Source: Thermoanaerobaculia bacterium
GTDB lineage: Bacteria > Acidobacteriota > Thermoanaerobaculia > Gp7-AA8
Assembly: GCA_036380735.1 (NCBI GenBank)
Contig: DASVEE010000045.1
Coordinates: 77,424-141,423, forward strand
Reading direction: 5' to 3'
Length of the DNA stretch: 64,000 nucleotides
Under the pieces are notes generated by a model that saw nothing but the letters and a program-made list of their open reading frames with translations, ran no database searches and was not told where the DNA came from. A program made the translations under genes and the position numbers. Positions 4,511 to 53,652 of the stretch are shown one piece after another (positions within the stretch are counted from its first letter, which is position 1; every line of letters starts with the position of its first letter).

Positions 4511-5293
4511 ATGACACTGAAGCAGGTTCAGGAAGGCATCGTCAACTCGCAGATCTGGAAGTCCGTCTTCCGAGTCGGCATCCCCAATACCAACCGTAAA
4601 CGCGTCCTCGCCGTTCTCGGCTCGCTCATCCTCCACCTGCATCCCGTCAAGGTCCGCCGCTCCGGCGTGCGCATGTCGTACACCTGGTGCATGGGCGGTA
4701 CGTCGTTCTTCCTCTTCCTCGTCGAAACCGTTACCGGCCTGCTGCTGATGTTCTATTACCGGCCGACGATCGAATACGCCTTCACGGACATCATGGACCT
4801 GCGCGAGCAGGCGCCGTTCGGGATCATGCGCGAGATGCACCGCTGGGGTGCGCACGCCATGGTCATCGCCGTCTGGCTGCACATGTTCCGCGTCTTCATG
4901 ACCGGTTCGTACAAACCGCCCCGTGAGTTCAACTGGAACGTCGGTGTCATTCTCCTCGTGCTGACGCTCCTCCTTTCCTTCACCGGATACCTCCTGCCGT
5001 GGGACCAGCTTGCAATCTGGGCCATCACGGTCGGCTCGAACATGGCGCGCGCAACGCCAGGCATGGGAACGGAGGGGCCGGCTTCGGCCCTCATAAAACT
5101 GGGCGACGTCCCCCTGATTCACGCGGGGGACGACGCCAGATTCGCTCTCATTGCAGGACGTTCGATCGGCGCGGCGACGCTGCTCCGTTTCTACGTGCTG
5201 CACTGCATGGTCATCCCGCTGGCCGCGGGATTCCTGATGGCGATTCACTTCTGGCGCGTGCGTAAAGACGGCGGCATCAGCGGTCCGATGTAG
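4511..5293 (+). CDS. Cytochrome b, N-terminal (b6-like) subunit
   Basis: Four-helix pattern with conserved His-containing helices (LILHLHP, MHRWGAHAMVIAVWLHMFR). Sits next to the Rieske gene. Confidence 0.85.
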   Translation: MTLKQVQEGIVNSQIWKSVFRVGIPNTNRKRVLAVLGSLILHLHPVKVRRSGVRMSYTWCMGGTSFFLFLVETVTGLLLMFYYRPTIEYAFTDIMDLREQAPFGIMREMHRWGAHAMVIAVWLHMFRVFMTGSYKPPREFNWNVGVILLVLTLLLSFTGYLLPWDQLAIWAITVGSNMARATPGMGTEGPASALIKLGDVPLIHAGDDARFALIAGRSIGAATLLRFYVLHCMVIPLAAGFLMAIHFWRVRKDGGISGPM

Positions 5294-5307
5294 GGGAGAG
5301 CGAGCCG

Positions 5308-6531: not shown

Positions 6532-6534
6532 CCC

Positions 6535-6637
6535 GGTTGTTGGTTGTCGGTTTTCGGTTTTCAGTGGAGACCGAAACCCGCAACACAACGTGAGCGACAA
6601 CTACCGACCGAAAACCGACAACCGAAAACCGACAACC
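6535..6637. repeat. Family-A heptamer palindromic repeat (CCGAMAA variant)
   Basis: Left arm ggttgttggttgtcggttttcggttttc, right arm gaccgaaaaccgacaaccgaaaaccgacaacc. Fills the gap between 5308..6531 and 6640..10023. Confidence 0.8.
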
Positions 6638-6639
6638 AA

Positions 6640-10859: not shown

Positions 10860-10865
10860 CGCCCT

Positions 10866-10946
10866 CGTTGTCCGTTGACCGTTTTCCGTTGTCCGTCTCT
10901 GCACGGGCGGCCGGAACGGAAAACGGACAACGGAAAACGGACAACG
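10866..10946. repeat. Family-A heptamer palindromic repeat
   Basis: cgttgtccgttgaccgttttccgttgtccgt / loop / acggaaaacggacaacggaaaacggacaacg, between the cupredoxin gene and ctaD. Confidence 0.85.
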
Positions 10947-13532: not shown

Positions 13533-13620
13533 GCGTTGGCCGTTTTCCGTTTCCGTTGTCCGTGCCGCGCTGGTGCACGAGCGGCAGCACGGACAACGGA
13601 AAACGGACAACGGAAAACGC
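13533..13620. repeat. Family-A heptamer palindromic repeat
   Basis: gcgttggccgttttccgtttccgttgtccgtgccgc / loop / gcggcagcacggacaacggaaaacggacaacggaaaacgc, between ctaE and the subunit IV gene. Confidence 0.85.
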
Positions 13621-14287: not shown

Positions 14288-14320
14288 GCGTTGTCCATTG
14301 TCCGTTTTCCGTTGTCCGTC
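14288..14320. repeat. Family-A repeat, solo left arm
   Basis: gcgttgtccattgtccgttttccgttgtccgtc with no adjacent right arm. Lies between ATG 14279 and GTG 14321 of the next small ORF. Confidence 0.75.
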
Positions 14321-14560
14321 GTGAGACCCGTCGCTCTCGCGGTGATCGCTGTGCTGCTGATGCCGGTGGTCGCCTGGGCCTGCCCCGTCTGCTATGGTTC
14401 GCCCGACGATCCGCTCGTCAAGGCGACGAATAACGGCATCTGGGTGCTCCTCGGCTTCATCGCCTTCGTGCAGATCGGTTTCGTCGCCCTTTTCATCACC
14501 TTCTGGCGCCGCGCCAAGGCCCAGCAGCGCTTCAAGGAGCAGTTCCACGTCGTCAAATAG
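14321..14560 (+). CDS. Small exported/membrane CxxC protein in the oxidase cluster
   Basis: From GTG 14321 it reads (M)RPVALAVIAVLLMPVVAWA-CPVCYGS, then one TM helix. The alternative ATG 14279 would add a repeat-encoded N-terminus. Confidence 0.4.
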   Translation: MRPVALAVIAVLLMPVVAWACPVCYGSPDDPLVKATNNGIWVLLGFIAFVQIGFVALFITFWRRAKAQQRFKEQFHVVK

Positions 14561-14565
14561 ATAGA

Positions 14566-14627
14566 GTTGTACGGTTCTGTCGTCCGCCGAGCGCAGCACG
14601 GAAAACGGACAACGGAAAACGGACAAC
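14566..14627. repeat. Family-A heptamer palindromic repeat (degenerate left arm)
   Basis: gttgtacggttctgtcgtccg..gcgcagcacggaaaacggacaacggaaaacggacaac, upstream of ctaC. Confidence 0.75.
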
Positions 14628-14645
14628 AGGCAGGGGGGTAGGACA

Positions 14646-22856: not shown

Positions 22857-22948
22857 GGCGTTGTCCGTTGACCGTTGTCCGTGGTCCGTGCTGCGCGGTG
22901 CGCCGGGCGCAGCACGGAAAACGGACAACGGAAAACGGACAACGGACC
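22857..22948. repeat. Family-A heptamer palindromic repeat
   Basis: ggcgttgtccgttgaccgttgtccgtggtccgtgctgcgc / loop / gcgcagcacggaaaacggacaacggaaaacggacaacggacc. Confidence 0.85.
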
Positions 22949-22959
22949 TCCGATCGTTC

Positions 22960-25860: not shown

Positions 25861-26421
25861 TTGCTTTCGGGTCGAATGGAGGAGGCTTCAAGGCGTCGCG
25901 CGGACAGATCTTTCTGTCCAGCGAAGGTCTCAATCTCCTCGCCGACGGCAGCGATCTCCTCGCCGAGGGCAGCGATTCCTCGGGTCGAAGGGACATTTCT
26001 GTCCGTCGAGGGTAGCGATCTCCTCGCTGAGGGCAGGTATCCCTCGGATCGAAGGCACATTTCTGTCCGTGGAGGGGAAAGATCTCCTCGCCGAGGGCAG
26101 GTATCCCTCGCATCGAAGGGATTTTTCTGTCCGTGGCGGGGAAAGATCCCTTCGCTCGCAGGGAAACATCCCTCGCGCGAAGGCAAAGATCCCCTCGACG
26201 GGGAGAAACCTCCCTTCGGTCGAACAGAAACGTCCCCTCAAGGAGGAGAAACGTCCCCTCAAGGAGGAGAAACGTCCCCTCAGCGAGGAGAAATGTCACG
26301 TCGAGGCAGGGGATCGGTGCCGTCAACGAGGGGAAACGTCCCCTCAGCGAGGGGAAAGGTGCCTGCGGAGCAGGGGAAACGTGCCTTCGGTGGAGGCAAA
26401 GGTCCGCTCGCCGAACGATTC
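25861..26421. repeat. Array of ~26 tandem 21/22-nt mini-hairpin units (non-coding, not CRISPR)
   Basis: Hand-parsed units, e.g. cgTCCCCTCagcGAGGGGAaa. Three 64-nt higher-order copies at 25953-26144. All six frames are open across the region. Confidence 0.85.
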
Positions 26422-27013: not shown

Positions 27014-27110
27014 GTGAGCGCATCTAGCGCATTTTCGGGGTCAGCGCTTTCGTCCGCGAGTTGAAGTCAGCCGGGTGTGCGGAGGAGCGTCGGCAGGCGT
27101 CATTCCTCGC

Positions 27111-27254
27111 GGGACAGACAAGAGTGTCTGTCCTCCACTACGCATCGCGAGTGCGTGCTCGTGCGTGCTCCGCGAACGACAGAAGTGAACGATGCAACAG
27201 TGCCGTAGCTCGCGCGACGACCCGCAGTGGAGGACAGACACTCTTGTCTGTCCC
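27111..27254. mobile_element. MITE-like element: 29-bp perfect terminal inverted repeats, each itself a hairpin
   Basis: gggacagacaagagtgtctgtcctccact (27111-27139) and its exact reverse complement (27226-27254), 86 bp apart. No ORF inside. Confidence 0.5.
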
Positions 27255-27675
27255 GCTAAGGCGCTCCGGCGGAGAGCGGTGGATCGTCCAGCGACCGCGG
27301 GCAGTCCAGCTTCGCACTTTGTCCCTCCACATACGGCAGCGTCGTCACGCGTCAAGAGCAGCGGTGACCCTCACGCCATAACCACTGCAGAAATCTGCCA
27401 ATTTGGATCTGGGCGTGGGGAAGTGGCGTCACAGCTTTGCTCTTCGTCTGATCGCGTCTCTTACATCCGCTAATGCCGCTCGCCACCATTCAAGAGAAGC
27501 TCTGCGCCTCACGCCCTGACCCGTAGAATATCGCCGTGTCGAAACGCCGATGGATCACCATCGCCACTGTCCTCGGGGTGACCGTGCTGGCTCTGGCGCT
27601 GTCTGCGCCACGACGCCCGGTGCTGCTCAGCCTCTCGCCCGATCCCACGGAGACCAGACCCGGAACTACTGCATC

Positions 27676-29435: not shown

Positions 29436-30173
29436 ATGGAGATCTGGATCGAGGCAGAACATGCAGCGCCCGCGACCGACGTGACGAATGACAATTGCGA
29501 CGTCATCGTGACTCTGGATGACGAGAGCCGCTGGGCTGCAACCTTCATCACCCCGCGCAACATCGAGTTTCTTCGGGCAAGCTACGTCGAATCCGGAGAG
29601 TGTCTGAGTGGTCGCTACTTCTGGGCGTCGAGCTCGATCATCGTCGATGAGATCACCAGACCGACGGTTGAAGCAGTGGTGGCGCATCTGCAGGAGACCT
29701 GCGAGTTCGAGCACGCGTTCGAAGAGCTCGTGCCCCCTCATACGATCCGGCTTCAGTTCGACCAAGCCGGCCTGCGCGGTACCTGCTACTTCGAGTTGCT
29801 GCCCGGCAAATATCGAGGTGAATGCTGGAACGAAGGGTCCGCATATATTGCGGAGGAGACGTGGGGCTACATCGAGCCTGTCATCGAAGCGCTCGAGCCA
29901 CGCTACGATCATTATGCGTTCGTCGATGTGCCAGCCGCGAAGTGGCGTGAGATCGTCGACGAGCTTCGTGTCCTCGCTGCGAAGGTCGCAACGGCGCAAA
30001 AGGTTGCGCAACTGCCTGACGGCGTCGGCTTTTTCTACCGCACCTCACGCAGTGACTTCGCGGCGACGTTCACGAACAACCGCAACGCTCTGGTTGCGTT
30101 CATTCGCGAGCTGTGTCTGTGGGTCGAGCGACAACTTCTGAAGCATGAGTTCATTGCCGTCCTGGGAATCTGA
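29436..30173 (+). CDS. Hypothetical protein (245 aa)
   Basis: ORF with acidic, protein-like composition. No family recognised. Confidence 0.5.
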   Translation: MEIWIEAEHAAPATDVTNDNCDVIVTLDDESRWAATFITPRNIEFLRASYVESGECLSGRYFWASSSIIVDEITRPTVEAVVAHLQETCEFEHAFEELVPPHTIRLQFDQAGLRGTCYFELLPGKYRGECWNEGSAYIAEETWGYIEPVIEALEPRYDHYAFVDVPAAKWREIVDELRVLAAKVATAQKVAQLPDGVGFFYRTSRSDFAATFTNNRNALVAFIRELCLWVERQLLKHEFIAVLGI

Positions 30174-30257
30174 CGGGTCAGGCGCCGACCGGCCGCTGCC
30201 CCGGTGGCGCAGGTCCACAGCTTTGTTCCTCGCACGCGATGGGGTAGTCTCCTTTGC

Positions 30258-30452
30258 ATGAAGACACTGGAGATTCGGGTGGCTGACGACGTCGCGTCGA
30301 GGCTCGAACGTGCCGCCGCGGAGAAGGGTGTGTCACTCGACGAGCTGGTACGCCTCAGCGTGGAAGAGAAGCTCGCACGCGATGAGCAGTTGGCGCTCGC
30401 GACCGGCTACGTGCTCGCCAAGAATGCAGAGCTGTACGAGCGGCTGTCGTAG
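30258..30452 (+). CDS. Ribbon-helix-helix type antitoxin (Phd-role partner of Doc)
   Basis: MKTLEIRVADDVASRLERAAAEKGVSLDELV is an RHH-like N-terminus. Its stop overlaps the Doc start. Confidence 0.65.
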   Translation: MKTLEIRVADDVASRLERAAAEKGVSLDELVRLSVEEKLARDEQLALATGYVLAKNAELYERLS

Positions 30453-30838
30453 TGCGGGTTCTCACCGTCGCTGAAGTCCTCGAGTTGCACGGGCGCGTCA
30501 TCGCCCAGTCGGGCGGAGGCGCTGGTCTGCGCGACCGTGGGGGGCTGGAGTCGTCGGTGAACCAGCCGCTCCAGAGCTTCGGCGGACAGGAGCTGTATCC
30601 GTCGATCGACGAAAAGGCCGCGGCGCTCGGCTACTTCCTCATCAGCAATCATCCGTTTGTCGACGGCAACAAACGGATTGGTCACGCGGCCATGGAAGTC
30701 ATGCTGGTGCTGAATGGCCGCGAGATCTCGGCGACTGTCGATGAGCAGGAGCGCATCGTCCTCTCAGTGGCGGCCGGCAGAATGACGCGCGAGGAATTCA
30801 CCCTCTGGGGGGTTGGCCACGTGACGCCGCGGCACTGA
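30452..30838 (+). CDS. doc: Doc (death-on-curing) / Fic-family toxin
   Basis: Fic motif variant HPFVDGNKRIGH. Confidence 0.85.
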   Translation: MRVLTVAEVLELHGRVIAQSGGGAGLRDRGGLESSVNQPLQSFGGQELYPSIDEKAAALGYFLISNHPFVDGNKRIGHAAMEVMLVLNGREISATVDEQERIVLSVAAGRMTREEFTLWGVGHVTPRH

Positions 30839-30840
30839 CT

Positions 30841-31563
30841 TCACGGCTGACTGAGGTACCGCTGCGTCAGCATCATCCGCGCGTTCTTCGTCGCGTTCGT
30901 CGCCGGCGCATGCACGATGCGCATGTCCATGAGGTACACGTCGCCGGCCTTCCCGTGCATTTCGATGACCTGCACGGTGACGCCGCGGACGTCGACGGGG
31001 CTGAGGAAGCGGGTGCGGTTCGAGGTGGCGGGCGTGAAGAGGGCGGCGTAGAGGGGATCGGTCTGCAGGACCTGGTGCGCGCTGACGGCTGCACCGCTTT
31101 TTGCGCGATGCAGCTTGTGGGAGCCGGCGATGGCGACGGTGCCTCCGCCCTGCGGCGCGACGTCGTCCAGGAGGACGAACAGCTGGATGCCGGGGAGCTC
31201 GTCTCGCGACGGTGACTTCACGTCGAGGTGCCACCCGAGGTGGGGGACGGACCAGGGGAGCTTCTGGGGCGGCGTCAGGAGGAGCTGCGGGTGCGGCAGG
31301 GCGGGGCGCAGCTCACGTCCGGCGAGGTCGTTCAGAGAGGGGACCAGCTCCTGCGGAATGACGTCGTCGAATTGAGGCTGGTGGCGCAGCCGCGGCGGCA
31401 GCTTCGAGGTGTGCCATTTGCCACCGGCGCGCGCGCCGAGGCGCGCGAGCTCAGCGAGGATGGCTTCACGCGCGGCGGTGGTTTTACCGCGGGGGATGAG
31501 GCCGCGGAGGTGCAGTAGACCGGTATCGGTGAAGTGGGCGCGGTCTTGATCGGTCAGCTTCAT
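30841..31563 (-). CDS. Phytanoyl-CoA dioxygenase (PhyH) family Fe(II)/2OG oxygenase
   Basis: GWHLD (HxD) and a distal His in IAGSHKL. ATG 31563; the longer track ORF runs through repeat B7. Confidence 0.7.
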   Translation of the reverse strand: MKLTDQDRAHFTDTGLLHLRGLIPRGKTTAAREAILAELARLGARAGGKWHTSKLPPRLRHQPQFDDVIPQELVPSLNDLAGRELRPALPHPQLLLTPPQKLPWSVPHLGWHLDVKSPSRDELPGIQLFVLLDDVAPQGGGTVAIAGSHKLHRAKSGAAVSAHQVLQTDPLYAALFTPATSNRTRFLSPVDVRGVTVQVIEMHGKAGDVYLMDMRIVHAPATNATKNARMMLTQRYLSQP

Positions 31564-31591
31564 GGGCGTGCCTTGCGGAGGGTGGCGTGGG

Positions 31592-31703
31592 GGAACGATG
31601 GGACGGATAGGACCTATAGGACAAATAGGACGAATGGGACGGATACGGTTTTCTGTCCCATAGGTCCTATTGGTCCTATAGGTCCTATCCGTCCCATCGT
31701 TCC
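31592..31703. repeat. Family-B nonamer palindromic repeat
   Basis: ggaacgatgggacggataggacctataggacaaataggacgaatgggacggatac / ggttttc / tgtcccataggtcctattggtcctataggtcctatccgtcccatcgttcc. Abuts the addA stop. Confidence 0.9.
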
Positions 31704-34700
31704 TATTGATCCCACTCCACCACCCGGTCGTTATCCAGATCGATGTACCACAGCAGGCCGCCGCAGGGGCGGCCCGTGATCGCGGAAACGGCGGCGCAGT
31801 AGCTGGCGACCTGGTCGCGGTGCGTGTCGGTGGGCGTGCCGCTCTTGTAGTCGATGACGACGTCGCGGCCGTTTTCGCGGATGAGGCGGTCGAGGCGGCG
31901 CTCCACCACTTCACCATCCTTTTCGTAGCGCACGATGAGCTCACGGCCGAGGGTCTGCGCTCGGGCGAGGCGCGCGCGCATGGGGGAGCGCGCCACCGTC
32001 GCCAGGCGGGAGCGCACACGGGTGATGGTGTCGTCGTCCGCTGCGACTTCGAGCGCGAGGCGGCGCAGCAGCGGCTCGGGGTCGGCGTTGCCATCCCAGC
32101 GCTCCAGCACGCGGTGCAGCAGGACGCCCGCGGTGCGGTGGCGCGAGCCGGAACGCCGCATGGCGATGTCCGACGGCGCCAGCGGCTCGGTGGAGAACTG
32201 CGGCGCGGGGATCGACGACTCCACGATCGGCGACGATGCGAGTTGCGCTTCCAGCGCCGCATCGCGCAGGCGGCGCCGCGTGTGCTGCTCGGTGTCCGAC
32301 AGCGCGAGGCGCTCGTAGGCCACCGTGCCCAGCGGAAGAGTAAGCAACGTGCGGCCGGTCTCCTGAGGCGCTTCGAAGGCGAACGCCTCCCGCACGTATT
32401 TCGCGAAGCCGACGTTCTTCGCTTCAGGGTTCCAGACGAAGACGACTTCCGACTTGGCGCGCGTGACGGCGACGTAGAACAGGCGCCGCGTTTCCGCTTC
32501 GTCGCGCGTGGCGCGCAGCTTCTTGAGCTTCTCCTCGCTGCCGCACGTGCGGAAGTTCGCGGAGATGGATTCGGCGCGGCCGGCCATGACCAGGCTGCGC
32601 GGCTCTTCCACGGTGAACAGTTGCAGCGTGTCGTTGGACGACGCGGGGAAGGCGAGGTCGGGGAGGATCACGCTCTCGAACTCCAGCCCCTTCGCCGCGT
32701 GCACCGACAGGATGCGGACGGCGTTGCGCGATTCGTCGGCGAGGCTCGGCTCCATCTCGTCCGGCTCGCTGCGGCGGCGCGTGATCTCGTCGACGAACTG
32801 CCGCACGGATCCGCCCGTGGTCTGGTCGAACTCGAAGGCGATGGCGCGGAGATGCTCGAGGTGCCGCTTGTGGCGCACCCCGTCCGCCGCCGCGTCGTAC
32901 ACCGCCTCGATGCCCGAGGTGGCGACGACGAGGTCGATGAGCCCGGAGACGGTGAGGTGCGTCGAGGCTTCCCGATAGCGCGTGAGCGTCTCGCGGAACG
33001 TCTGCCAGACTGTCGGCGGCGTGGTCCGTTGTTCGTTGTCCGTGGTCCGTTCCGTGGAGCCGCCGGCGATCTCCGCATCGGTGAGCGCAAAGTACGGCGT
33101 GCGCGCGGCGGAGTACTCCGCGCCGGGATCGAACGGAAAGGCGATGGCGCGCAGCACGGCGAGGAGGTCGACCGGCGCGCGGCGGTCGAGGAACAGCCGC
33201 GTCGGCGGCAGCACGTAGTCGATGCCGTAGCGCTCCAGCGTGTCGAGGTAGTCGTCCAGCTTCGTCAGGCGGCGGAAGAGGATGGCGAAGCGCTGCAGGT
33301 CGCGCTCGCCGCCGTCGCGATTCGCGCGGATCCACTCGGCGATGACCTCGCCCTCACGGAAGAAACGATCGGCGCGGTCCTCATGATCCGCATGCAGGAA
33401 CGTGACGCGCGCCTCGAGCTCGCGCGCCGGTTTGCTCTTGCCGGCGCGCAACGGGAGATACGCCGGGCGGAAGACGTTCGGATCGTGCGGCATCTCGGGG
33501 AAGAGCTGCGTGAACAGCGCGTTGATCGTGGCCAGCAACTCGGGATCGCTGCGGTACTGATCCTCGATCCTCCGCCGTTCCGCCCCCGCCGCGATCAGCT
33601 CCTCGGTCATCTGGTAATACGTCTCGGGATCGGCGCGCCGGAAGCCGTAGATCGACTGCTTCGGATCGCCGACGACGATGGTGCGGCCCGGCACGTACGT
33701 TCCCGAAGCGTCGCGCGCGAGCCGCTCGATGATGCGCGCCTGCGTGCGGTCGGTGTCCTGGAACTCGTCGACGAAGATGTAGTCGAACTGCGCGCGCGCC
33801 CGTTCGAGCACGCTCTCGTCGTCGAGCACCGCCAGCGTGCGCAGGAGCAGATCATCGAAGTCGACGACGCCGAGCTTCCGCTTCTCCTGATCGAGGTAGT
33901 CGACGAAGCGGCGCCCCATCGAGACGAGCGCCATCGCCGCGCGGTGGCTGGCCAGGCGGTCGTGGATCGAGCGGCCCTTGTCGCCGCAGCGGAGGTAGCG
34001 CAGCGCTTCCTTGAGCACGCCGGTCCGCGGCAGGTTCGCTTCGCGGATCGACGCGGCGATCGGCTGCAGGTAGTCGATCCACGCATCGATCGATCCGCGC
34101 GGCGGCTCCTCCGACTGCAGGTATTCGAAGACGCGGCGGGCGTCGACGTCCTTCACCTCAATCGCGTTTGTCTTCCGGATGACGGCGATGGTTTCGACGA
34201 GATCGGGCTCCACCTCGTCGAAGCTGCCGAACTCGTATTGGTCCTCGTTGAGCAGGTCGCGCCGATCGAGCAGCGCGAAGACGAGGTCGCGGATCTGGAA
34301 CAGGTAGCCGACGTGCGCAAACAGGATCTCCCACTCGCGCACGATCTCCTCGGTCGGATGGACGCGCGTCTCCTCGTCCACCCAGGCGTCGTAGAGCTGC
34401 CCGTAGAGCAGCGTGCGCTCGAAGCCTTCGATGATCTTGAACTGCGGATCGAGGCCGGCCTCGATGGGGAAGAGCCGGAGCAGCGATTGGCAGAAGGAGT
34501 GGATCGTCTGCGACCGCAGCGAGTCGATGCGCGAGAGCTGCTTCGCGCACGCGCGGCGCCACTGCTCGCGTTTCTCCTCCGGCATCTCGACGAGCGGGCG
34601 CGGCGAGCCGATCGGCCAGACGACGCGCTGCCCTGCGAGAGCATCATCAAGATGTGCGTCGAGCTCCTGCAGCGCGTCGTGGATGCGGTCGGCGATCTCG

Positions 34701-34888
34701 CCCGCGGCCTTCTCCGTGAAGGTGACGAGGACGATGCGCTCAGGCGACAGCTCCTCGTCCCCGAGCATCAGCTTCAACACCTCGGCCACGATCGCCGTGG
34801 TCTTCCCGGTGCCGGCGCCGGCTTCGATGACGACGTTGCGCCGCGCGCTCGTCGGCTTCGGGGCGAAGTCGAACGACTGCTGCATCAC
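31703..34888 (-). CDS. addA: UvrD-type helicase / PD-(D/E)XK nuclease, AddA-like
   Basis: Walker A GAGTGKT, FTEKAA, DEFQDT, and C-terminal nuclease motif VVIDYKSG. Confidence 0.8.
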   Translation of the reverse strand: MMQQSFDFAPKPTSARRNVVIEAGAGTGKTTAIVAEVLKLMLGDEELSPERIVLVTFTEKAAGEIADRIHDALQELDAHLDDALAGQRVVWPIGSPRPLVEMPEEKREQWRRACAKQLSRIDSLRSQTIHSFCQSLLRLFPIEAGLDPQFKIIEGFERTLLYGQLYDAWVDEETRVHPTEEIVREWEILFAHVGYLFQIRDLVFALLDRRDLLNEDQYEFGSFDEVEPDLVETIAVIRKTNAIEVKDVDARRVFEYLQSEEPPRGSIDAWIDYLQPIAASIREANLPRTGVLKEALRYLRCGDKGRSIHDRLASHRAAMALVSMGRRFVDYLDQEKRKLGVVDFDDLLLRTLAVLDDESVLERARAQFDYIFVDEFQDTDRTQARIIERLARDASGTYVPGRTIVVGDPKQSIYGFRRADPETYYQMTEELIAAGAERRRIEDQYRSDPELLATINALFTQLFPEMPHDPNVFRPAYLPLRAGKSKPARELEARVTFLHADHEDRADRFFREGEVIAEWIRANRDGGERDLQRFAILFRRLTKLDDYLDTLERYGIDYVLPPTRLFLDRRAPVDLLAVLRAIAFPFDPGAEYSAARTPYFALTDAEIAGGSTERTTDNEQRTTPPTVWQTFRETLTRYREASTHLTVSGLIDLVVATSGIEAVYDAAADGVRHKRHLEHLRAIAFEFDQTTGGSVRQFVDEITRRRSEPDEMEPSLADESRNAVRILSVHAAKGLEFESVILPDLAFPASSNDTLQLFTVEEPRSLVMAGRAESISANFRTCGSEEKLKKLRATRDEAETRRLFYVAVTRAKSEVVFVWNPEAKNVGFAKYVREAFAFEAPQETGRTLLTLPLGTVAYERLALSDTEQHTRRRLRDAALEAQLASSPIVESSIPAPQFSTEPLAPSDIAMRRSGSRHRTAGVLLHRVLERWDGNADPEPLLRRLALEVAADDDTITRVRSRLATVARSPMRARLARAQTLGRELIVRYEKDGEVVERRLDRLIRENGRDVVIDYKSGTPTDTHRDQVASYCAAVSAITGRPCGGLLWYIDLDNDRVVEWDQ
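33018..33057. repeat. Family-A repeat, solo arm inside addA CDS
   Basis: ggcgtggtccgttgttcgttgtccgtggtccgttccgtgg, translated (minus strand) as STERTTDNEQRTTP. Confidence 0.75.
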
Positions 34889-37833
34889 GATCTCGTTGCG
34901 CCCTCGACCGTTGCGCCTTCAGCCGCGAGGAGCGTGCGCGGATCCTTCTTCTGCTGCACCGCGTAGCGCTCGTCCAGGTCGTGCTTTGTCCGGCAGGAGT
35001 GGTTCACCGGGCAGTACTTGCACGAGTTGAAGTCTTCGTCGCGGTCGTTCGGGAACGCGGGGAAGACGCCGTTGCGGATCGACGTGACGAACAGCTCGAG
35101 CGTCTCCAGCAGTGCTTCGCGCTTCTCGGCGAGATCGAAGGCGAAGGCGCCGTTCTGCTCCCCGATGACGAGCGGCTTGATCGTGCCGCTGACGTCGGTC
35201 GACTCGAAGAAGTCGGAGACGGCCATCGCGTACAGCGCGAGCTGCAGGCGCACGCCGCGGTCGATCTTCTTCGCGAGGTTCTTGTGGCGCAGCGCTTTCC
35301 CCGACTTGTAGTCCACGATGCGGAAGCGTGTCGGACCGCGATCGATGCGGTCGATGGTGCCGTCGACGCGGAGCGTGATGCCGCGCGTGTCGAGGATGAA
35401 CGGCTCGGGGTGGTCGATCTGCTCGGGCCTGCGGTGGCGCTGGCCGAAGCGGTACTCGAAGTGGGAGGGGAGCAGCCCTTCGTCGGCCAGCTCGCCGAGG
35501 TCGTGGGTGACGAAGTCGCGGAGGATGCGCTTGGTGGCGCGCCGCTCGATGTCGCGCACCGTGCGGTTGAACGGCGGCGCATCGGCCTCGAGCTGATCGA
35601 ACGCCTGGTCGATGAGCTGCTCCAGCAGATCGACGAGGTACTGCGGCAATCGCGGCAACGCGGCCGCCGCCTCGGCGATGTCGTTCGGCTTCAGGCGGCG
35701 GTAGAACTGCTCGAGGATCTGGTGGTCGAGCGTCCCCTTGTCGCGGTGATGGATCTGGAGCTCGCGTTCGGGGTCGTCGAGGTCTTTGACGCCGAGGATC
35801 CATTTGACGAGGAACTTGTGCGGACACTCGCCAAAGTCTTCGAGCTGAGTCGGGGTGACGGATTCCAGCGTCTTCGCCACGCGATCGCGCAGGAGGTCCG
35901 GTCCCAGGTAGCCGTCGAAGACCGATTGCGTACCGGCCATGGTGAGCATCTGCAGCGCGCGCAGGCGTCCCGGGGGGACGATGGGACTGGGGCTGGCGGC
36001 GGAGTCATCGTGCGCCACCGCGGGCATGTCCCGCACGAGGCGTGACCGGCGCAGGATCTTGCCGAAGCCGTCAGACGCGGCGTAGCTGAAGCGCAGCTCA
36101 TCGGTGGCGTCGTACAGCAGTTGAAACAGCAACTGCTCTTCATCGCGGCCGTCGCCGATCTCGCGGACGCCGAGGGCGCGGCGGTCGGCGTCGGGGACCA
36201 GTGGGTCTTCGTTGCGGCGCTGCGGGAACACGTCGTCCTGCATGCGCAGCGCGAACAGATGCTGGAACGACCGGCCGCGGAAGCGGAGGATCTCGCCGGC
36301 GAAGACGCGTGGTGTTTTTTCGGGCTGCGGTTTGCGCTCTTCGAGCTCGACGTTCTCGATCGCGTCGACGACGGCGTTGAGGTCGAAGCCGCGGTTCCAG
36401 ACCTGTGTCCGGCGGAAAAGGTCCGCGATGGCGTCCAGCTCCTCGGCCGCCGCGACGTCGAGCTTCGTCTCGATGCGGAAGAGGCCGGGCAGCTTGCCGA
36501 GGAAGGGGACGTCGATGCTGGCGGTGAGCTCTTCGAGCTCGGCGACCAGCTTCACGTAGTCTTCGATGACGGGCGATTTGCGGCGCACGGTGCGCAGCTC
36601 GGCGCTGGTGCCGCCGGCGATGCGCGCCACGCGCGTCTCGGCGTCGGCCTTGTCGGCGTTGATGTTGGTCTTCGTCCGCAGGCCATCGCGCACGAGCTCC
36701 AGCACCTCGGCCCGCGGATAGCCGCGATCCCTCAGGCGGAGCAGCGTGATGACGCCGCGCCCGAGGCGGTGCGCCTTGAGGGGAATTATCTCGGCCAGGG
36801 TGGTGCGGAATCCGTGCTCCGCCGCAAAGCGATGAAGGAGCTGCTTGTCGTAAGCATCCATCGAGCGCGCGACGATGCCGATGTCATGGGCATCCACCCC
36901 CGCGGCGAGTAAGTCACTGACGGTGCGGCAGGTTTCCCGCAGTTCATCATGGCGAGTGGGATACACGGTTAGATGAACGCCCGGCCTATCATTTCGTGTC
37001 ATCCCGAGCGTAGCGAGGGACCTGGGTGGGAGGGGCTGCGTGAATGGCGTTTTTGCGTGCCCCTCCCGCCCAGTTCCCTCGCTACGCTCGGGATGACACA
37101 CCTCATCAGTCCTATCGGTCCCATCGTCCCCCAGCCTCTCCGCCAGCGGCCTGGAAAAGGGATGGTCGATGGGCATCCACACCGCGGCCAGCTTTTGCGT
37201 TTCACGCAAGGCGTCGACCACGGCGAACTGCACGCCGGTCATGTCGTAGAAGCCGGCCAGCAATTGCGGCGGGACGGCGGCGCCGCGACGGATGCGCTCG
37301 GCCGCGCGGACGAAGAGGTCGGCCGGGTCGATGGCGCCGAGGCGGGCGATGAGGCGCTCGTACTCCTCCCAGGCGCGGATGATGAGCTTCGTGCGGCCGG
37401 GATTGCGGAGCGGACGCCGCTGCGCGCGGGCGCGGAACTCCTCGAGCGTCAGCCCGGAATCGCGCACGTCGCGATAGGCGCGCTCGAGCATCGAGGCGAC
37501 GCCGCGGCTCTCCATCATCGGATGGTCGATCGTGCGGACGGCGGTGCGCATGGCCAGGCGGCGCTCGCCGTCGCTGGCGATGTGGGGGTAGTCGCCGGCA
37601 TCGTTGAGGATGCGCCGGGAGAGGGATTCGAGGGTGTCGATGGCCACCGCGGCGACGCCGCTCCTCGTTTTCAGCAGTTCGCGGACGATGGCCTCGGCCA
37701 TCGCCGACGACGGAACGATGACCCCTTCGGCCCACGGAGCGAGCGGATCGGGGGCGGAATCGCGTCCTCCGGCGAGACGCTGTGCTGTTTCGAGGGCAAT
37801 TTCACGATAACGGGCGAACCGGAGGAGGGACAT
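34885..37833 (-). CDS. addB: AddB-like helicase-nuclease subunit
   Basis: C-terminal RIVDYKSGK nuclease motif and Cys cluster CKYCPVNHSC. Stop overlaps the addA start. ATG 37833. Confidence 0.75.
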   Translation of the reverse strand: MSLLRFARYREIALETAQRLAGGRDSAPDPLAPWAEGVIVPSSAMAEAIVRELLKTRSGVAAVAIDTLESLSRRILNDAGDYPHIASDGERRLAMRTAVRTIDHPMMESRGVASMLERAYRDVRDSGLTLEEFRARAQRRPLRNPGRTKLIIRAWEEYERLIARLGAIDPADLFVRAAERIRRGAAVPPQLLAGFYDMTGVQFAVVDALRETQKLAAVWMPIDHPFSRPLAERLGDDGTDRTDEVCHPERSEGTGREGHAKTPFTQPLPPRSLATLGMTRNDRPGVHLTVYPTRHDELRETCRTVSDLLAAGVDAHDIGIVARSMDAYDKQLLHRFAAEHGFRTTLAEIIPLKAHRLGRGVITLLRLRDRGYPRAEVLELVRDGLRTKTNINADKADAETRVARIAGGTSAELRTVRRKSPVIEDYVKLVAELEELTASIDVPFLGKLPGLFRIETKLDVAAAEELDAIADLFRRTQVWNRGFDLNAVVDAIENVELEERKPQPEKTPRVFAGEILRFRGRSFQHLFALRMQDDVFPQRRNEDPLVPDADRRALGVREIGDGRDEEQLLFQLLYDATDELRFSYAASDGFGKILRRSRLVRDMPAVAHDDSAASPSPIVPPGRLRALQMLTMAGTQSVFDGYLGPDLLRDRVAKTLESVTPTQLEDFGECPHKFLVKWILGVKDLDDPERELQIHHRDKGTLDHQILEQFYRRLKPNDIAEAAAALPRLPQYLVDLLEQLIDQAFDQLEADAPPFNRTVRDIERRATKRILRDFVTHDLGELADEGLLPSHFEYRFGQRHRRPEQIDHPEPFILDTRGITLRVDGTIDRIDRGPTRFRIVDYKSGKALRHKNLAKKIDRGVRLQLALYAMAVSDFFESTDVSGTIKPLVIGEQNGAFAFDLAEKREALLETLELFVTSIRNGVFPAFPNDRDEDFNSCKYCPVNHSCRTKHDLDERYAVQQKKDPRTLLAAEGATVEGATRS
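36996..37099. repeat. ~104-bp palindromic element (40-bp arms) inside addB CDS
   Basis: gtgtcatcccgagcgtagcgagggacctgggtgggagggg / 24-nt loop / near-perfect reverse complement. Translated as CHPERSEG...SLATLGMT. Confidence 0.85.
37104..37131. repeat. Family-B repeat, solo arm inside addB CDS
   Basis: catcagtcctatcggtcccatcgtcccc, translated (minus strand) as GDDGTDRTDE. Confidence 0.65.
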
Positions 37834-37929
37834 GAAGTTGTTTCGATTGTAAGGGATCGGTGGCGTGCATGGATCTCGCAAATGCGCCGCGTTGGGCAAT
37901 GAGCTTCCGAATCGGGATAATGCGCGCAC

Positions 37930-38403
37930 ATGGGAAAGCCGCACGTGCGCGTCATCAGGGTGAGCAAACGGGTAACGGTCGCGTTACTCGTGCTCGTCAG
38001 CGGCGCCATGGCGGCGCTGATCTGGTATCTCTCCGGCAAAGCGTACGTCGGCGGGAACACGGTGCCGGAAGTGCTGTCGAAGGCGGTCACGGAGCGGCGC
38101 GGCCTCTCCCGCGACGCTTTCTTCGCCGTGCTCATGCCCATCCTCGGCAACGTGATGCTGTTTCTGCCGTGGGGGTTCCTCTTCTTCCTGGCCATCGACA
38201 GGCCGGAGCGTTCGCGGCCGCGCAGCTACGTCATGACATTCGTGGCGGGACTCGTCTTCGCGGGCTTTCTCTACGGTTGGCAATACTTGCTGCCGACGCG
38301 CGTGACGACGCTCGCCGACGCCGCTTCCAACGGCGTGGGCGCGCTGGGCGGCGCCTGGCTGGGGCACATGCGCAAGCAGGTGCGCGTGAGATTCAATTAC
38401 TGA
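37930..38403 (+). CDS. VanZ-like membrane protein
   Basis: NVMLFLPWGFLF and NGVGALGGAWLG motifs, four helices. Confidence 0.65.
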   Translation: MGKPHVRVIRVSKRVTVALLVLVSGAMAALIWYLSGKAYVGGNTVPEVLSKAVTERRGLSRDAFFAVLMPILGNVMLFLPWGFLFFLAIDRPERSRPRSYVMTFVAGLVFAGFLYGWQYLLPTRVTTLADAASNGVGALGGAWLGHMRKQVRVRFNY

Positions 38404-38413
38404 GGTTGATGCC

Positions 38414-38785
38414 GTGATTCTGGTAGTCGAAGACGATGCGCAGGTCGCGCGCCTCATTTCGCTCGTGCTGAAGCGGAGCGGTTATGAGTCCGAGATCGTT
38501 GCCGACGGACAGAGCGCGCTGGCGAAGGCGCGACAGTTGCGTCCGGCGATGATCTTCGCCGACCTCACCATCAAGGGGATGGGCGGCGAAGCGCTCTGCA
38601 GCGCGCTCAAGGCACTTCCCGAAACGAAAGAGATTCCATACGTCGTGGTCTCAGGCGATGCCGACATCGCCGAAAAAGCGCGCGTCTGCGGGGCCGACGA
38701 CTACATGGGCAAGCCATTTGAATTCGACGATCTCATCCGTCTCGTCAATAAATATGCAAGAGCTGAAAGCCGAAAAGCCGACTGA
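38414..38785 (+). CDS. Single-domain response regulator
   Basis: ILVVEDD, MIFADLTIKGMGG, VVSGD, DYMGKP. Confidence 0.8.
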   Translation: MILVVEDDAQVARLISLVLKRSGYESEIVADGQSALAKARQLRPAMIFADLTIKGMGGEALCSALKALPETKEIPYVVVSGDADIAEKARVCGADDYMGKPFEFDDLIRLVNKYARAESRKAD

Positions 38786-39374
38786 GTCTCCCGCCGACAG
38801 CGATCCTGTCGAACGTCTCATGAACCGCCTCGCGGAGGAGGGGTTCGAGTCCGAAATGAGTCCCTCGGAGTTCGAGGAGTATGGCGAGATCATTTTTCGC
38901 CGTCCCGAAAAACTCCCGATGGCCGCGGGCGAGACCGTCTTCATCTTCACCCGCATCTCCGAGCTCAACGAGCGCATCCTCCGGCAGACGTCGGAGTCGG
39001 TCGTGAACACGTACAAGGCGAAGAGCGCCGGACAGAAGGTCCTGTCCGTGCTTCAGTCGACGACGGTCTACCACTGCCTCGTCACCACGAGCGAACAGCC
39101 GCACAACGAGCTCCTCAACGAGTTCATCGTCCGCAGCGGCGGCGCGACGTTCATCCCCGTGGTGATCGTCCCCGGCATCAATCAGGTGCTCTATCCGAAC
39201 CTGGAAGACAAGGTGGGCACCATCCGCCCCCGCGTCGAGTACCTCCAGTTCCTCCTGAACGAGCGCCGCGAACCGGTCAACATGCACCGCCAGACGGTGC
39301 AGGCGTTCTGGGTCTCCATGGCCGTCGTGGCCCTGCTGATCCTGGCGGTCGGGTTTTCGTTCATCACCCGATAG
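38754..39374 (+). CDS. Hypothetical C-terminally anchored protein
   Basis: ATG 38754 overlaps the response regulator gene by 32 nt. C-terminal TM helix MAVVALLILAVGFSFI. Confidence 0.45.
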   Translation: MQELKAEKPTESPADSDPVERLMNRLAEEGFESEMSPSEFEEYGEIIFRRPEKLPMAAGETVFIFTRISELNERILRQTSESVVNTYKAKSAGQKVLSVLQSTTVYHCLVTTSEQPHNELLNEFIVRSGGATFIPVVIVPGINQVLYPNLEDKVGTIRPRVEYLQFLLNERREPVNMHRQTVQAFWVSMAVVALLILAVGFSFITR

Positions 39375-39500
39375 ACGAATAGGACCTATAGGACGGATGG
39401 GACTGCGGACCGTGCAGCCGAGTAGCCTGTAGTCACCGGCATCCCGCATCCAGGGTCCGCCAGGCCTATCTGTCCTATAGGTCCTATGCGTCCTATTTCC
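39371..39500. repeat. Family-B nonamer palindromic repeat (long-loop copy)
   Basis: atagacgaataggacctataggacggatgggac / ~58-nt loop with its own tgcggacc...ggtccgcc stem / ggcctatctgtcctataggtcctatgcgtcctatttcc. Confidence 0.85.
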
Positions 39501-39581
39501 GCGCGCACCAGTGGCCGCTACCACCGCTTAGAATCCCCTGCGCTATCGGCCGGATCACATTGCCGGTCCACACCGCCTCGT

Positions 39582-39752
39582 TCATTCGCGGCTGCGCATC
39601 TCGCGGAGCAGCGCTTCGCCGGAAATCGTTTCGCCACGCTCACACTGCGCGATTGACTCGAGCAGCACAGCCTTCAGTTCAGCGCTGACTTCGAAGGTTT
39701 CCTCGTCGCCGGCGGCGGTACCGTGCACGACCTTGCCCGAGGAGATTCTCAT
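39582..39752 (-). CDS. Possible small ORF (56 aa), antitoxin-like C-terminus
   Basis: Hand translation: MRISSGKVVHGTAAGDEETFEVSAELKAVLLESIAQCERGETISGEALLREMRSRE. Below the track cutoff and no partner gene seen. Confidence 0.25.
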   Translation of the reverse strand: MRISSGKVVHGTAAGDEETFEVSAELKAVLLESIAQCERGETISGEALLREMRSRE

Positions 39753-39828
39753 ATGAGTATTCTAGTCCGGGACGAACCATCCCGCCTCGCCGACCGACGT
39801 GGCGCCATCGCGTACAATCCCCCGCGCT

Positions 39829-40908
39829 ATGGAAGCTTTTCCCCTGCGGCCGCGTGACATCTATGACGAGCTTCGCAAGACGATCGTCGGGCAGGAAGAT
39901 GCCATTCGGGAGATTGCCGTTGCGCTGGTGAAGCATCTGGTCGGGCATCCGGCGCCGAACATCCTCCTCATCGGGAACTCGGGGACGGGGAAAACGACGC
40001 TCATGCGCGCGGTGGAGCTCTACCTCGCGGCGCATCCGGAGACGAAGGAATTCGGCAACGTCGTGCGCATCAACGCGAACGTGCTGGCCGAGGAGCATCA
40101 GGGCTACGGCCGGGTCGTGCTGGGGCGGCTGTTCGAGAACGCCAGGAAGATCCATGGTCCCGGCGCGGGGCTCGACCGCCTCATCAAGAGCGTGGAGCAC
40201 GGCATCGTCTTCATCGACGAAGTCGACAAGATCCGCACGACGGTCGGCGGCGGCGCGAACGTGCGCGGCATCGTGGCGCAGGAAGCGCTGCTGACGCTGA
40301 TGGAGAACGAGAACGTCACCTTCGAAGCGGACGGCATGACGCTCGGGCTCAACTCGTCGCACATCCTGTTCGTCGCCGGCGGCGCGTTCGAGGAGCTGTA
40401 CGACAGCGTCCTCCGGCGCGCCACCATCGGTCAGGACGTCGCGCCGATGAAGCCGGTCGTCGTCGTCTCCTCGACCGGCGAAGTGCGCGAAGAGCTGCCG
40501 TTCCACCTCCGCGACTACCTGAAGTACGACGATCTGTTCCGCTACGGGATGACGCCGCAGTTCGTCTCCCGCTTCGAGTCGATCGTCGTGCTGAACGATC
40601 TCACCGAGCCCGATCTCGCGCGCATCTTCGTCGAGCCCGAAGCATCGATCTTCCGCACCTCGCGCGAATACTTCCGCCGCTTCGGCATCGACCTGCAGAT
40701 CACGCGCGGTGCCCTCACCGCCATCGCCTGGGATGCCGCCCGGCAGAAACGCCTCGGCGCCCGTGCCCTCCGCGAAACCTACCGCCGCATCATCCGCAAC
40801 CTCGAATTTGAGCCCAGCAACGGCTCCGGCCCCGGCACGATCACCGTCGATGAAGAGATGGTGAAACACGCGATCGCGAATCGCGAACAGGGGTCGGGCC
40901 GGCGCTGA
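39829..40908 (+). CDS. AAA+ ATPase, ClpX/HslU-like, without zinc finger
   Basis: Walker A GNSGTGKT, Walker B IVFIDEVDK, ClpX-like IVGQEDAIREIAVAL. Confidence 0.75.
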   Translation: MEAFPLRPRDIYDELRKTIVGQEDAIREIAVALVKHLVGHPAPNILLIGNSGTGKTTLMRAVELYLAAHPETKEFGNVVRINANVLAEEHQGYGRVVLGRLFENARKIHGPGAGLDRLIKSVEHGIVFIDEVDKIRTTVGGGANVRGIVAQEALLTLMENENVTFEADGMTLGLNSSHILFVAGGAFEELYDSVLRRATIGQDVAPMKPVVVVSSTGEVREELPFHLRDYLKYDDLFRYGMTPQFVSRFESIVVLNDLTEPDLARIFVEPEASIFRTSREYFRRFGIDLQITRGALTAIAWDAARQKRLGARALRETYRRIIRNLEFEPSNGSGPGTITVDEEMVKHAIANREQGSGRR

Positions 40909-44548: not shown

Positions 44549-44642
44549 GCGCGTTGTCCGTTTCCCGTTGTCCGTTGTCCGTGCTGCGCGCGGCGTACAG
44601 CACCAGCACGGACAACGGACAAGGGAAGACGGACAACGAACG
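44549..44642. repeat. Family-A heptamer palindromic repeat between two divergent sigma54 promoters
   Basis: gcgcgttgtccgtttcccgttgtccgttgtccgtgctg / loop / cagcacggacaacggacaagggaagacggacaacgaacg. Confidence 0.85.
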
Positions 44643-53129: not shown

Positions 53130-53186
53130 GCGGCGCACCGTGCGTGGGTGTCGTTGGCGCGCGGAGTATCGTGGCTTTTAGCGCGT

Positions 53187-53287
53187 GGTTGTTGTCGGTT
53201 TTCGGTTTTTGGTTTTCGGTGCTGCGCCCTGCGAGGATCTACGCGTAGCGCAGCACCGACAACCGACAACCGACAACCGAAAACAAC
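53187..53287. repeat. Family-A palindromic repeat (CCGAMAA variant) between convergent cheB and 53287..53652
   Basis: ggttgttgtcggttttcggtttttggttttcggtgctgcgc / loop / gcgcagcaccgacaaccgacaaccgacaaccgaaaacaac. Confidence 0.85.
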
Positions 53288-53652
53288 TACCGCCGCGCCC
53301 CCAACAGTTCATTCACCGTCGCGGCGATCTCCGGCAGCCTTTTCGGTTTCTGCAGCAGGACGTCCGCGCCGCGGGCGTCGGCCTGGACGGCGGATGCGCG
53401 GTAGGCGGTCAGCACGACGATCACCATCGTTTCGCTTTGGCCTCGCGCGAAGCGCACCACCTCCAGCCCTTCCGCTTCCTCGGAACCGGTGAGGCGCACG
53501 TCGGCGATCAGCACGTCGTACGTGCGCGTCGACAGCAGCTCGATCGCTTCGTCGCGGCGCGAGGCGGTGTCGACTTCGAAGCCCGTCAGCGTGAAGTAGC
53601 TGCGGCACGCGAAGGTGATGACATCTTCGTCGTCGACGACGAGCATACGCAT
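53287..53652 (-). CDS. Single-domain response regulator
   Basis: MLVVDDED, VLIADVRLTG, LTAY, LQKP. Confidence 0.8.
   Translation of the reverse strand: MRMLVVDDEDVITFACRSYFTLTGFEVDTASRRDEAIELLSTRTYDVLIADVRLTGSEEAEGLEVVRFARGQSETMVIVVLTAYRASAVQADARGADVLLQKPKRLPEIAATVNELLGARR

Follow-up and report, generated by a model that had tools for sequence, protein, structure and literature searches.

In-frame insertion of a REPIN-like palindromic element into the interdomain linker of an addB-type gene in a Thermoanaerobaculia genome

What becomes of a protein-coding gene when a palindromic repeat enters it? This question is raised by a 64,000-nt stretch of a Thermoanaerobaculia genome (a soil bacterium of the Acidobacteriota; assembly GCA_036380735.1, contig DASVEE010000045.1, positions 77,424 to 141,423 of the forward strand), hereafter called the window, in which an addB-like gene stays open across two different repeat sequences. 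One of them is a 102-nt palindrome made of two inverted 27-nt units that resemble repetitive extragenic palindromic (REP) sequences; the other is an adjoining arm of a second repeat family, termed family B. We consider it probable that the palindrome is a recently inserted, non-autonomous element which was tolerated by the gene, and that it is an essentially neutral ‘decoration’ of an AddAB enzyme that still works.

A scan for open reading frames (ORFs) on the minus strand returned one uninterrupted ORF of 1019 codons (34885..37944), which agrees with an earlier, sequence-only reading of the locus. The likely start of the addB-like gene is M38 (MSLLRF...), on which the database gene call (P0001) and the orthologue consensus agreed; the gene then spans 34885..37833(-) and encodes 982 aa. 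The inverted repeat described in that reading was recovered at 36996-37099 (104 bp), with 41-nt arms (36996-37036 and 37059-37099) that are 95% complementary and a 22-nt spacer. In the whole window, a 23-nt core of the arm occurred at these two arm positions only (0.00 expected from shuffled sequences). The coding-strand translation of 36996-37131, which includes both repeats, was GDDGTDRTDEVCHPERSEGTGREGHAKTPFTQPLPPRSLATLGMT without stops, the other two frames having 1 and 4 stops. The palindrome has one stop-free frame in either orientation, and this is the frame used by the gene. We set the bounds of the element at 36997-37098, since TGTCA is where conservation begins in the units of the repeat family. 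The element so defined is exactly 34 codons long (CHPERSEGTGREGHAKTPFTQPLPPRSLATLGMT, beginning CHPERSEG and ending LGMT; P0001 residues 246-279). It consists of a left outer unit of 27 nt on the plus strand (TGTCATCCCGAGCGTAGCGAGGGACCT, 36997..37023), an inverted copy of this unit on the minus strand (37072..37098), supported by the inverted repeat and by matches in other genomes, and a lineage-specific inner stem (CTGGGYGGGAGGGGC and its complement) with its loop between the two (37024..37071).

The palindrome was predicted to fold very stably, both as RNA (36960-37140(-): −105 kcal/mol, z = −9.0) and, for the 102-nt unit, as single-stranded DNA (−52 kcal/mol, z = −13.8). No target-site duplication was found, as the coding-strand flanks (GAGGTG before and CGAAAT after the element) contain no direct repeat. 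The element differs in this respect from miniature inverted-repeat transposable elements derived from insertion sequences, which combine terminal inverted repeats with such a duplication. A scan of 36700-37400 for promoter- or terminator-like sites was empty, which led us to drop the idea that the element holds a terminator or a promoter for an internal restart. Tryptic peptides unique to the insert, as predicted from the translation, include EGHAKTPFTQPLPPR and SLATLGMTR; TPFTQPLPPR is likewise a predicted tryptic peptide derived from the repeat.

The product of the host gene combines a degenerate helicase-like N-terminal part with a C-terminal PD-(D/E)XK nuclease domain and four cysteines. 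Pfam PDDEXK_1 (PF12705) matched residues 696-985 of the 1019-aa ORF (E = 1.2e-31). The nuclease motif D841-Y842-K843 and the cysteines C670, C938, C941 and C947 were invariant in an alignment of 116 orthologues, and all were retained in the window’s protein. In Bacillus AddB, four cysteines around the nuclease domain are the ligands of an iron-sulfur (Fe-S) cluster; in the window’s AddB they are present as residues, and metal binding is predicted. A profile of the 116 orthologues matched B. subtilis AddB among the PDB sequences (3U44_B, E = 3e-12). An AlphaFold2 model of the window’s protein reached a mean predicted local distance difference test (pLDDT) score of 86.6 and a predicted template modelling score of 0.81. 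Its best PDB matches in Foldseek were the five AddB chains of AddAB crystal structures (E = 4e-28 to 4e-26, template modelling (TM) scores 0.62-0.68; 4CEJ_B with E = 4e-28, 3U44_B with TM 0.68), ranking ahead of AdnA and RecC. The score with the curated NCBIfam AddB equivalog TIGR02773 was 63.1 bits, below its cut-off of 903.7, and the orthologues in the Thermoanaerobaculia and other Acidobacteriota are named simply ‘PD-(D/E)XK nuclease family protein’ in public sources. The window’s protein shares with B. subtilis AddB (chain B of 3U44, 3U4Q and 4CEJ) the overall fold, the RecB-type nuclease with four cysteines and the operon with AddA, but only about 15–17% sequence identity. Its designation as an AddB-type subunit of a divergent, distant subfamily is justified. 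The addA-like gene (31703..34888(-)), recognised as an ORF with matches to a UvrD-type helicase and a C-terminal PD-(D/E)XK nuclease, is co-oriented with addB and overlaps its stop by 4 nt. The addB-addA order was kept at three loci of other genomes (L001, L122 and L123, see below).

Both repeats lie in a hypervariable interdomain linker (P0001 residues 233-290; 36964..37137(-)), as delimited with the AlphaFold2 model and with MAFFT alignments of 70 and of 116 Thermoanaerobaculia orthologues, the larger set including P0001. The linker is bracketed by a conserved helix (WVPTExPFAQPF..., or ‘...PF(S/A)xP(L/F)..’) and a conserved strand (‘Y(D/P)TRxDEL’; YDTRxDELRxVC...). Its median length among the 116 sequences was 25 aa (interquartile range 22–26, range 9–150), compared with 58 aa in the window. 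Excision of the 102 nt left a linker of 24 aa that was still in frame, with ...RLGDDGTDRTDEV / ...PLAERLGDDGTDRTDEV to the left of the junction and RNDRPGVHLTVYPTRHDEL... to the right. The net gain over the orthologues is consequently about 33–34 aa, fewer than the 45–50 inserted residues estimated in the sequence-only reading; including the family-B arm, 45 residues are repeat-derived in all (P0001 235-279). The single family-B arm, about three units with a 9-nt period, occupies 37102..37131(-) and is read as GDDGTDRTDE (P0001 residues 235-244), directly next to the palindrome as first described. Its segment 37109-37127(-) matched the family pattern ACGATGGGACNNATAGGAC with 0 mismatches; across the window the pattern matched 8 times where 0.01 matches were expected. 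Because the linker without the palindrome has 24 aa against a median of 25, the arm does not count as a gain in length, and it is probably either older than the palindrome or a replacement of linker sequence. Of the two insertions originally proposed, that of the palindrome was upheld as recent and that of the arm was not. A second family-B arm to the left of the palindrome (36960-36995) showed a weak resemblance (CCTATCATTTC vs CCTATCGTTTC) and is not claimed.

Sequence homologous to the 34 insert residues was found in none of the 115 other orthologues, apart from a few that have related palindromes of their own; native, non-repeat sequence at this position, which would have spoken against an insertion, was thus absent from the alignment. 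The window’s gene is not split into two ORFs either. An empty site was found in the closest available relative, protein P0002 on locus L001 (ENA ERZ27253094 k141_253009), which is 82% identical and shows conserved synteny; its site lacks the palindrome, and its linker has an ordinary length. Judged from these comparisons, the 102-nt palindrome is a clear recent insertion. In L001, a frameshift in the same linker (5860-5900) divides addB into the ORFs 5123-6097 and 6001-8043. It lies within the tract TCCCATCCA(CCGCCAA)x3, and the frame would be restored by a further 7-nt unit. This frameshift would be either a real slippage- or repeat-mediated inactivation or an assembly error in the 7-nt tandem repeat.

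In the structure model, the one long stretch of low confidence (pLDDT <50, P0001 residues 240-278) coincided with the insert and was bracketed by a helix (228-235) and a strand (285-291), so that the insert maps to a linker predicted to be disordered. With the strand that follows (‘...IGIVARS...’), this helix-to-strand junction is presumably the transition from domain 1A to domain 2A of UvrD-like folds. A hidden Markov model alignment placed a structured, Bacillus-specific expansion of about 50 residues of B. subtilis AddB at the same junction, where the window’s family has a short variable linker; the junction accordingly tolerates changes in length across the AddB family. Among insertions of at least 10 aa in the 116 sequences, this linker (profile positions 234-246) was by far the busiest site, followed by profile positions 563-579, 786 and the termini. 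A second stretch of low confidence (613-623) coincided with a second insertion hot spot of the orthologues. At the second hot spot of AddB, the protein of L001 contains what looks like an entire family-B hairpin, read in frame (about 6850-6970; P0002 residues about 285-325; KDMGQMGPMGPMG...SHLSHESHQSHQSH), which is absent from the window’s protein.

Repeats have entered the first linker more than once. Linkers of at least 36 aa occurred in 15 of the 116 orthologues. Palindromes of a related family, with the termini TGTCATCCTGAGC...GCTCAGGATGACA, were confirmed in the DNA of this linker in all three orthologues that were fetched: at L122 (P0024) the linker segment folds at −132 kcal/mol, at L123 (P0066) it holds one and a half palindrome copies and at L124 (P0047) a related palindrome. 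Linkers of other orthologues contained peptides of the family-B type (GPIGPISRIGPI, SYRTYGTYRTY), peptides of the type of a third, 7-nt-periodic repeat family termed C (DNRQPTTDN, PTNQQPATSN) and further palindrome-type peptides (AEGR...LPSALCAL, GNSQLATRN). In P0099 and P0007, palindrome arms were read in other, partly open frames (VIPS..RDL, VPR..ARDD). The linker is a recurrent permissive hot spot for repeats. The presence of several unrelated families at one site argues for a selective filter, i.e. a permissive loop, rather than for a DNA target preference, and repeats inserting beside repeats may contribute to its occupation.

The palindrome is single-copy in the window, and its status as a repeat therefore rests on other genomes. 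A scan of one genome per species for the 22-mer core of the outer unit (TCATCCCGAGCGNAGCGAGGGA) gave at least 120 loci, compared with about 0.3 chance matches by our own estimate (about 1.2e12 positions, 21 fixed bases). The conserved 27-nt unit is TGTCATCCCGAGCGNAGCGAGGGAYCT, i.e. (T)GTCATCCCGAGCGNAGCGAGGGAYCT, and is near-identical across at least eight phyla, the hairpin interior being lineage-specific. Among the matches listed, 84 of 145 arms had an inverted partner within 140 nt, and the unit started with TGTC in 78% of the copies, including those of the window, and with CGTC in 16%. The same matches came from Acidobacteriota (Terriglobia and Thermoanaerobaculia), Gemmatimonadota, Verrucomicrobiota, Myxococcota, Bacteroidota and Armatimonadota, from Alpha-, Beta- and Gammaproteobacteria and from one Clostridiales metagenome-assembled genome (MAG); cultured isolates among them were Luteimonas, Reyranella, Vineibacter and Legionella yabuuchiae. 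Arms lay in long open frames in 19 of the 145 listed cases (about 13%), fewer of them in verified genes. The listed copies appear to be mostly extragenic and dispersed.

The unit had sharp conservation boundaries at positions −2 and +24, and no conservation beyond its edges was seen in the flanks of 143 arms. The interior differs between lineages yet remains self-complementary. The extended arm of 40–42 nt matched loci of Thermoanaerobaculia and other Acidobacteriota only (L026 97.6%, L037 95%, L088 92.7%), whereas other phyla matched the window’s arm in the outer 27 nt only, some at 100%. Several copies per MAG occurred in other Thermoanaerobaculia (DASVLC01: L004, L038 and L047; DASYLL01: L026 and L037). 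The centre of the unit is GCGNAGC, found in the window at 37006-37016 (GAGCGTAGCGA) and in the inverted copy, a sequence known to form DNA mini-hairpins of unusual stability in which GNA is the loop. The predicted stem of the unit comprises (A)TCCC/GGGA(T) and GC/GC around the GNA loop, with two mismatches. Self-folding of a single 27-nt unit was not supported, as its folding energy (−3.1 to −3.5 kcal/mol, z = −0.6) was no better than that of shuffled sequences; the extra stability of d(GCGNAGC) mini-hairpins is missing from the nearest-neighbour energy model.

No bacterial Rfam family was found in 30000-40000 at E ≤ 1, the sub-threshold matches being mostly generic models of miRNA precursors and hairpins. 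The element had no BLASTN match in 72,556 plasmids. A protein search with a 40-aa query containing the repeat-derived peptide gave no candidates that had three words in common with it. Strings of the unit’s sequence occurred in the text of no paper searched other than as unrelated primer coincidences, a search that would miss a consensus given only in a figure. A Y1_Tnp gene (IS200/RAYT-like, after the REP-associated tyrosine transposases, RAYTs) lies downstream of addA in L001 (12005-12961), behind an array of short repeats (GTGAGGGTCAGAGCTTCG...). A tblastn search with this one query found no homologue in the window or in 8-kb neighbourhoods of the 120 REP-bearing loci, and a link between this transposase and the element was dropped. 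The gene is flanked by other repeats.

Several known systems resemble this arrangement. Di Nocera et al. (2013; PMC3733652) described intragenic REPs with GTAG or CGTC tags, often in inverted pairs, as frequent in replication and repair genes (recBCD, uvrD/rep, uvrA/B, dnaE/dnaE2), with in-frame REP dimers encoding 20–30 aa and clusters encoding 43–82 aa, and with different REPs at about the same site of recB in Xanthomonas. The case in AddB, an analogue of RecBCD, likewise combines a dimer-like palindrome and another repeat at one site; Acidobacteriota and addB are not among the hosts described there. The published pattern is also matched by a Chthoniobacterales MAG (Verrucomicrobiota; JBJMWW010000068.1, L039 3396-6539), in which an ORF resembling DnaE, the alpha subunit of DNA polymerase III (domains PHP, pol3_alpha, finger, HHH_6 and OB), has its HHH_6 domain and OB fold separated by an in-frame doublet of the 27-nt unit (PERSEGPL...VPRSARDD). 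The REPs tagged with CGTC have an 8–9 bp stem starting with AT, a 4–5 nt loop and a short CCA-like tail, and they lack a dedicated transposase (PMC3733652). The window’s unit resembles them in architecture, having a 4-nt (T/C)GTC tag followed by a stem starting with AT, but falls outside their strict definition, as the tag is mostly TGTC, the stem has two mismatches, the loop has 3 nt and the tail is YCT rather than CCA. The REP families of that study are lineage-restricted, in contrast to the window’s unit, which is common to many phyla.

With the REP doublets known as REPINs and mobilised by RAYTs, the element shares the architecture of a hairpin in which inverted REP units at both ends enclose a variable interior. 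The units of the window’s family begin with (T/C)GTC rather than with the GTAG tag of that system, and a cognate RAYT flanked by REPs was not found in the window or the 8-kb neighbourhoods searched with the one tblastn query. In-frame fusions of repeats with genes have been reviewed, including Rickettsia palindromic elements (RPEs) and several families of miniature inverted-repeat transposable elements and REPs (PMC3184786). As those reviewing papers relate the work of Ogata et al. (2000; via PMC3184786 and PMC3733652), RPEs are palindromes of about 100–150 bp that lie in frame in proteins which are still expressed. The parallel with RPEs drawn in the sequence-only reading held as an analogy, not as membership, and no relationship in sequence is expected: both are in-frame insertions in protein genes, and the length of 102 nt is comparable, but RPEs are confined to Rickettsia whereas the outer unit of the element occurs in at least eight phyla, and the expression of RPE-bearing proteins was shown experimentally while the window’s case is known from sequence.

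We propose that the mobile element was a REPIN-like doublet of 102 nt, in which an inner stem specific to the lineage connects two 27-nt REP-type units in inverted orientation. This doublet would have entered the DNA encoding the short, disordered linker between the 1A-like and 2A-like domains in the degenerate helicase half of AddB, in which the family-B hairpin fragment was probably already present. Its arrival may have been by transposition of a hairpin-forming element in single-stranded form; since neither a target-site duplication nor an associated transposase was found, the mode of mobilisation is read from the architecture of the element. The gene was presumably not broken because the element is exactly 34 codons long and entered in the sole stop-free frame. 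Survival of the insertion would thus have depended on a length that is a multiple of three, on that single open frame (about 1 chance in 3) and on a loop in which extra residues spare the folding of the protein. The likely outcome is an additional surface loop of about 34 residues, with AddB function retained and little effect on fitness. As a side effect, the addB mRNA would gain a long, near-perfect stem of 41 bp; by analogy with work on other bacterial repeats, this stem is a plausible substrate of RNase III and could possibly lower AddB output.

By its sequence, the gene looks functional: the frame, the catalytic residues and the Fe-S cysteines are intact, the 4-nt overlap with addA and the translational coupling are kept, and the ratio of nonsynonymous to synonymous substitution rates (dN/dS) relative to L001 is 0.28 for the part of AddB that precedes the linker, 0.17 for the part that follows it and 0.18 for addA. 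The structure model and dN/dS favour tolerance of the insert over damage. Some observations weigh against this interpretation. The dN/dS values average over the whole divergence from L001 and are blind to a recent loss of function, and the function of the decorated AddB is a prediction from the sequence and the model. The addB gene of the sole close relative is frameshifted in the same linker, which indicates that occupation of the linker by repeats can be harmful. The window holds a single copy of the palindrome, no target-site duplication accompanies it, and no transposase of the Y1/RAYT type was associated with it in the window or the 120 loci. With a 41-bp stem in its mRNA, AddB might be expressed at a lower level, and ‘neutral’ is perhaps too generous a word.

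One alternative is that the insertion is in frame but damaging, with addB turning into a pseudogene or being strongly down-regulated by the extra loop or by the 41-bp hairpin in mRNA or DNA; the hairpin would act by stalling ribosomes, by causing slippage in replication or as a target of RNase III-type cleavage. The very stable hairpin (−105 kcal/mol in RNA context), the split addB of L001 with its frameshift in the 7-nt tract and the somewhat higher dN/dS of the N-terminal part (0.28) than of the C-terminal part (0.17) are consistent with such damage. We nevertheless regard it as unlikely, given that the window’s gene has no stop or frameshift and retains all catalytic and Fe-S residues, that the insert lies in a predicted disordered linker which varies from 9 to 150 aa among orthologues, and that many full-length orthologue genes contain comparable inserts in it; the frameshift of L001, for its part, may be an error of metagenome assembly. 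An artefact, either a chimeric assembly or a native linker that resembles repeats by chance, has hardly any probability. The window’s contig, a single one of about 170 kb that encodes P0001, is apparently metagenome-assembled, all relatives are metagenomic and repeats are classic places of misassembly, but the flanks are collinear with the orthologues on both sides, the frame is kept, the arms are 95% complementary over 41 nt, the core TCATCCCGAGCGNAGCGAGGGA recurs exactly at the 120 or more loci in other genomes, and independent assemblies have related elements at the same site.

Alternatively, the repeat might have been co-opted. It could act as a hairpin in RNA or DNA that regulates the ratio of AddB to AddA or ties addAB expression to hairpin-processing activities, or as a protein loop with a new function. 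Co-option would explain why repeats recur in the linker, and in genes of recombination and replication generally: in different lineages the linker has been occupied by three or more unrelated repeat families, a second repeat-derived segment lies in addA, the Verrucomicrobiota MAG has the 27-nt-unit doublet in frame in its DnaE-like gene, and REPs within genes have been described as common in those of replication and repair (PMC3733652). The inserts vary, on the other hand, in family, sequence, length and exact position, they have no conserved peptide or RNA motif in common, and about 100 of the 116 orthologues have none. Nor are repair genes the only ones occupied, since a family-B arm is also read through by an ORF for a membrane protein in the window (see below); long proteins of several domains that are weakly expressed and have disordered linkers may simply be more permissive. 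Co-option therefore has a slim chance of being correct, and we retain a tolerated, essentially neutral insertion as the best explanation.

A bolder idea is that the unit TGTCATCCCGAGCGNAGCGAGGGAYCT (core GCGNAGC) belongs to a so far undescribed pan-bacterial REP system, in which the unit is kept almost unchanged in at least eight phyla while the interior diversifies within lineages, and whose elements would persist above all where enzymes of recombination and replication have disordered linkers. We consider this unlikely. If it were true, a widely shared mobilising or binding protein would be implied, and the preference for linkers (that between 1A and 2A of AddB, hit independently several times, AddA and the DnaE-like protein of Verrucomicrobiota) could reflect a functional connection of hairpin repeats with the enzymes acting on hairpin-induced breaks. 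The cross-phylum unit, if it is really undescribed, would be the more interesting lead. For the tolerated insertion, the locus offers a clean natural experiment in protein tolerance, comprising an empty site in a relative, an element of exactly 34 codons and a modelled disordered host loop. In-frame palindromic repeats were already known; what is added is a recurrent hot spot in AddB, and the accumulation of REPs in genes for recombination and repair, published but unexplained, now includes AddAB and a further phylum. This insertion-tolerant site could also serve for placing tags in AddB. For annotation, the repeats account for odd peptides in Acidobacteriota (CHPERSEG..., ...LGMT, VIPS.ARDL, VPRYARDD, GPIGPI, TTDNRQ) and for the length variation among AddB orthologues.

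Families B and C are also represented elsewhere in the window, and together they make the source genome unusually rich in periodic hairpin repeats. A complete family-B hairpin (31592..31703; 52-nt arms, 92% complementary) directly downstream of the addA stop served as the reference for the intragenic arm. The seven matches to ACGATGGGACNNATAGGAC outside addB lay in hairpins at 1499, 17935, 21490, 24312/24436 and 31595/31682. Within addA, a segment derived from family C (33019..33063(-); 7-nt period) is read in frame as TERTTDNEQRTT. Comparison with the AddA of L001, which has the segment as well (ERTTDNGQPTT), indicates that it predates both the split between the window’s lineage and L001 and the insertion of the palindrome. 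Intergenic hairpins of family C, with the 7-nt period CGGACAA/CGGAAAA and a GTGCTGCGC centre, were located at 10865-10945, 13573-13618, 14288-14641, 22858-22957, 44551-44637 and 53185-53290. Tandem arrays with periods of 21 nt and 64 nt (e.g. GGAGAAACGTCCCCTCAAGGA) were dense at 25911-26392. Another palindrome family was represented at 27109-27256, with 39-nt arms (GGACAGACA..GAGTGTCTGTCC) that are 92% complementary; L001 has a similar element directly downstream of its addA (11360-11490). The membrane-protein ORF mentioned above encodes a hydrophobic product of 455 aa (924-2291(+)) and reads through a family-B arm at 1477-1531 (GHGSHSSYRSYGSHRFS). It has no Pfam match and a coding-like GC content at third codon positions, and it may represent another in-frame repeat decoration, outside the repair genes.

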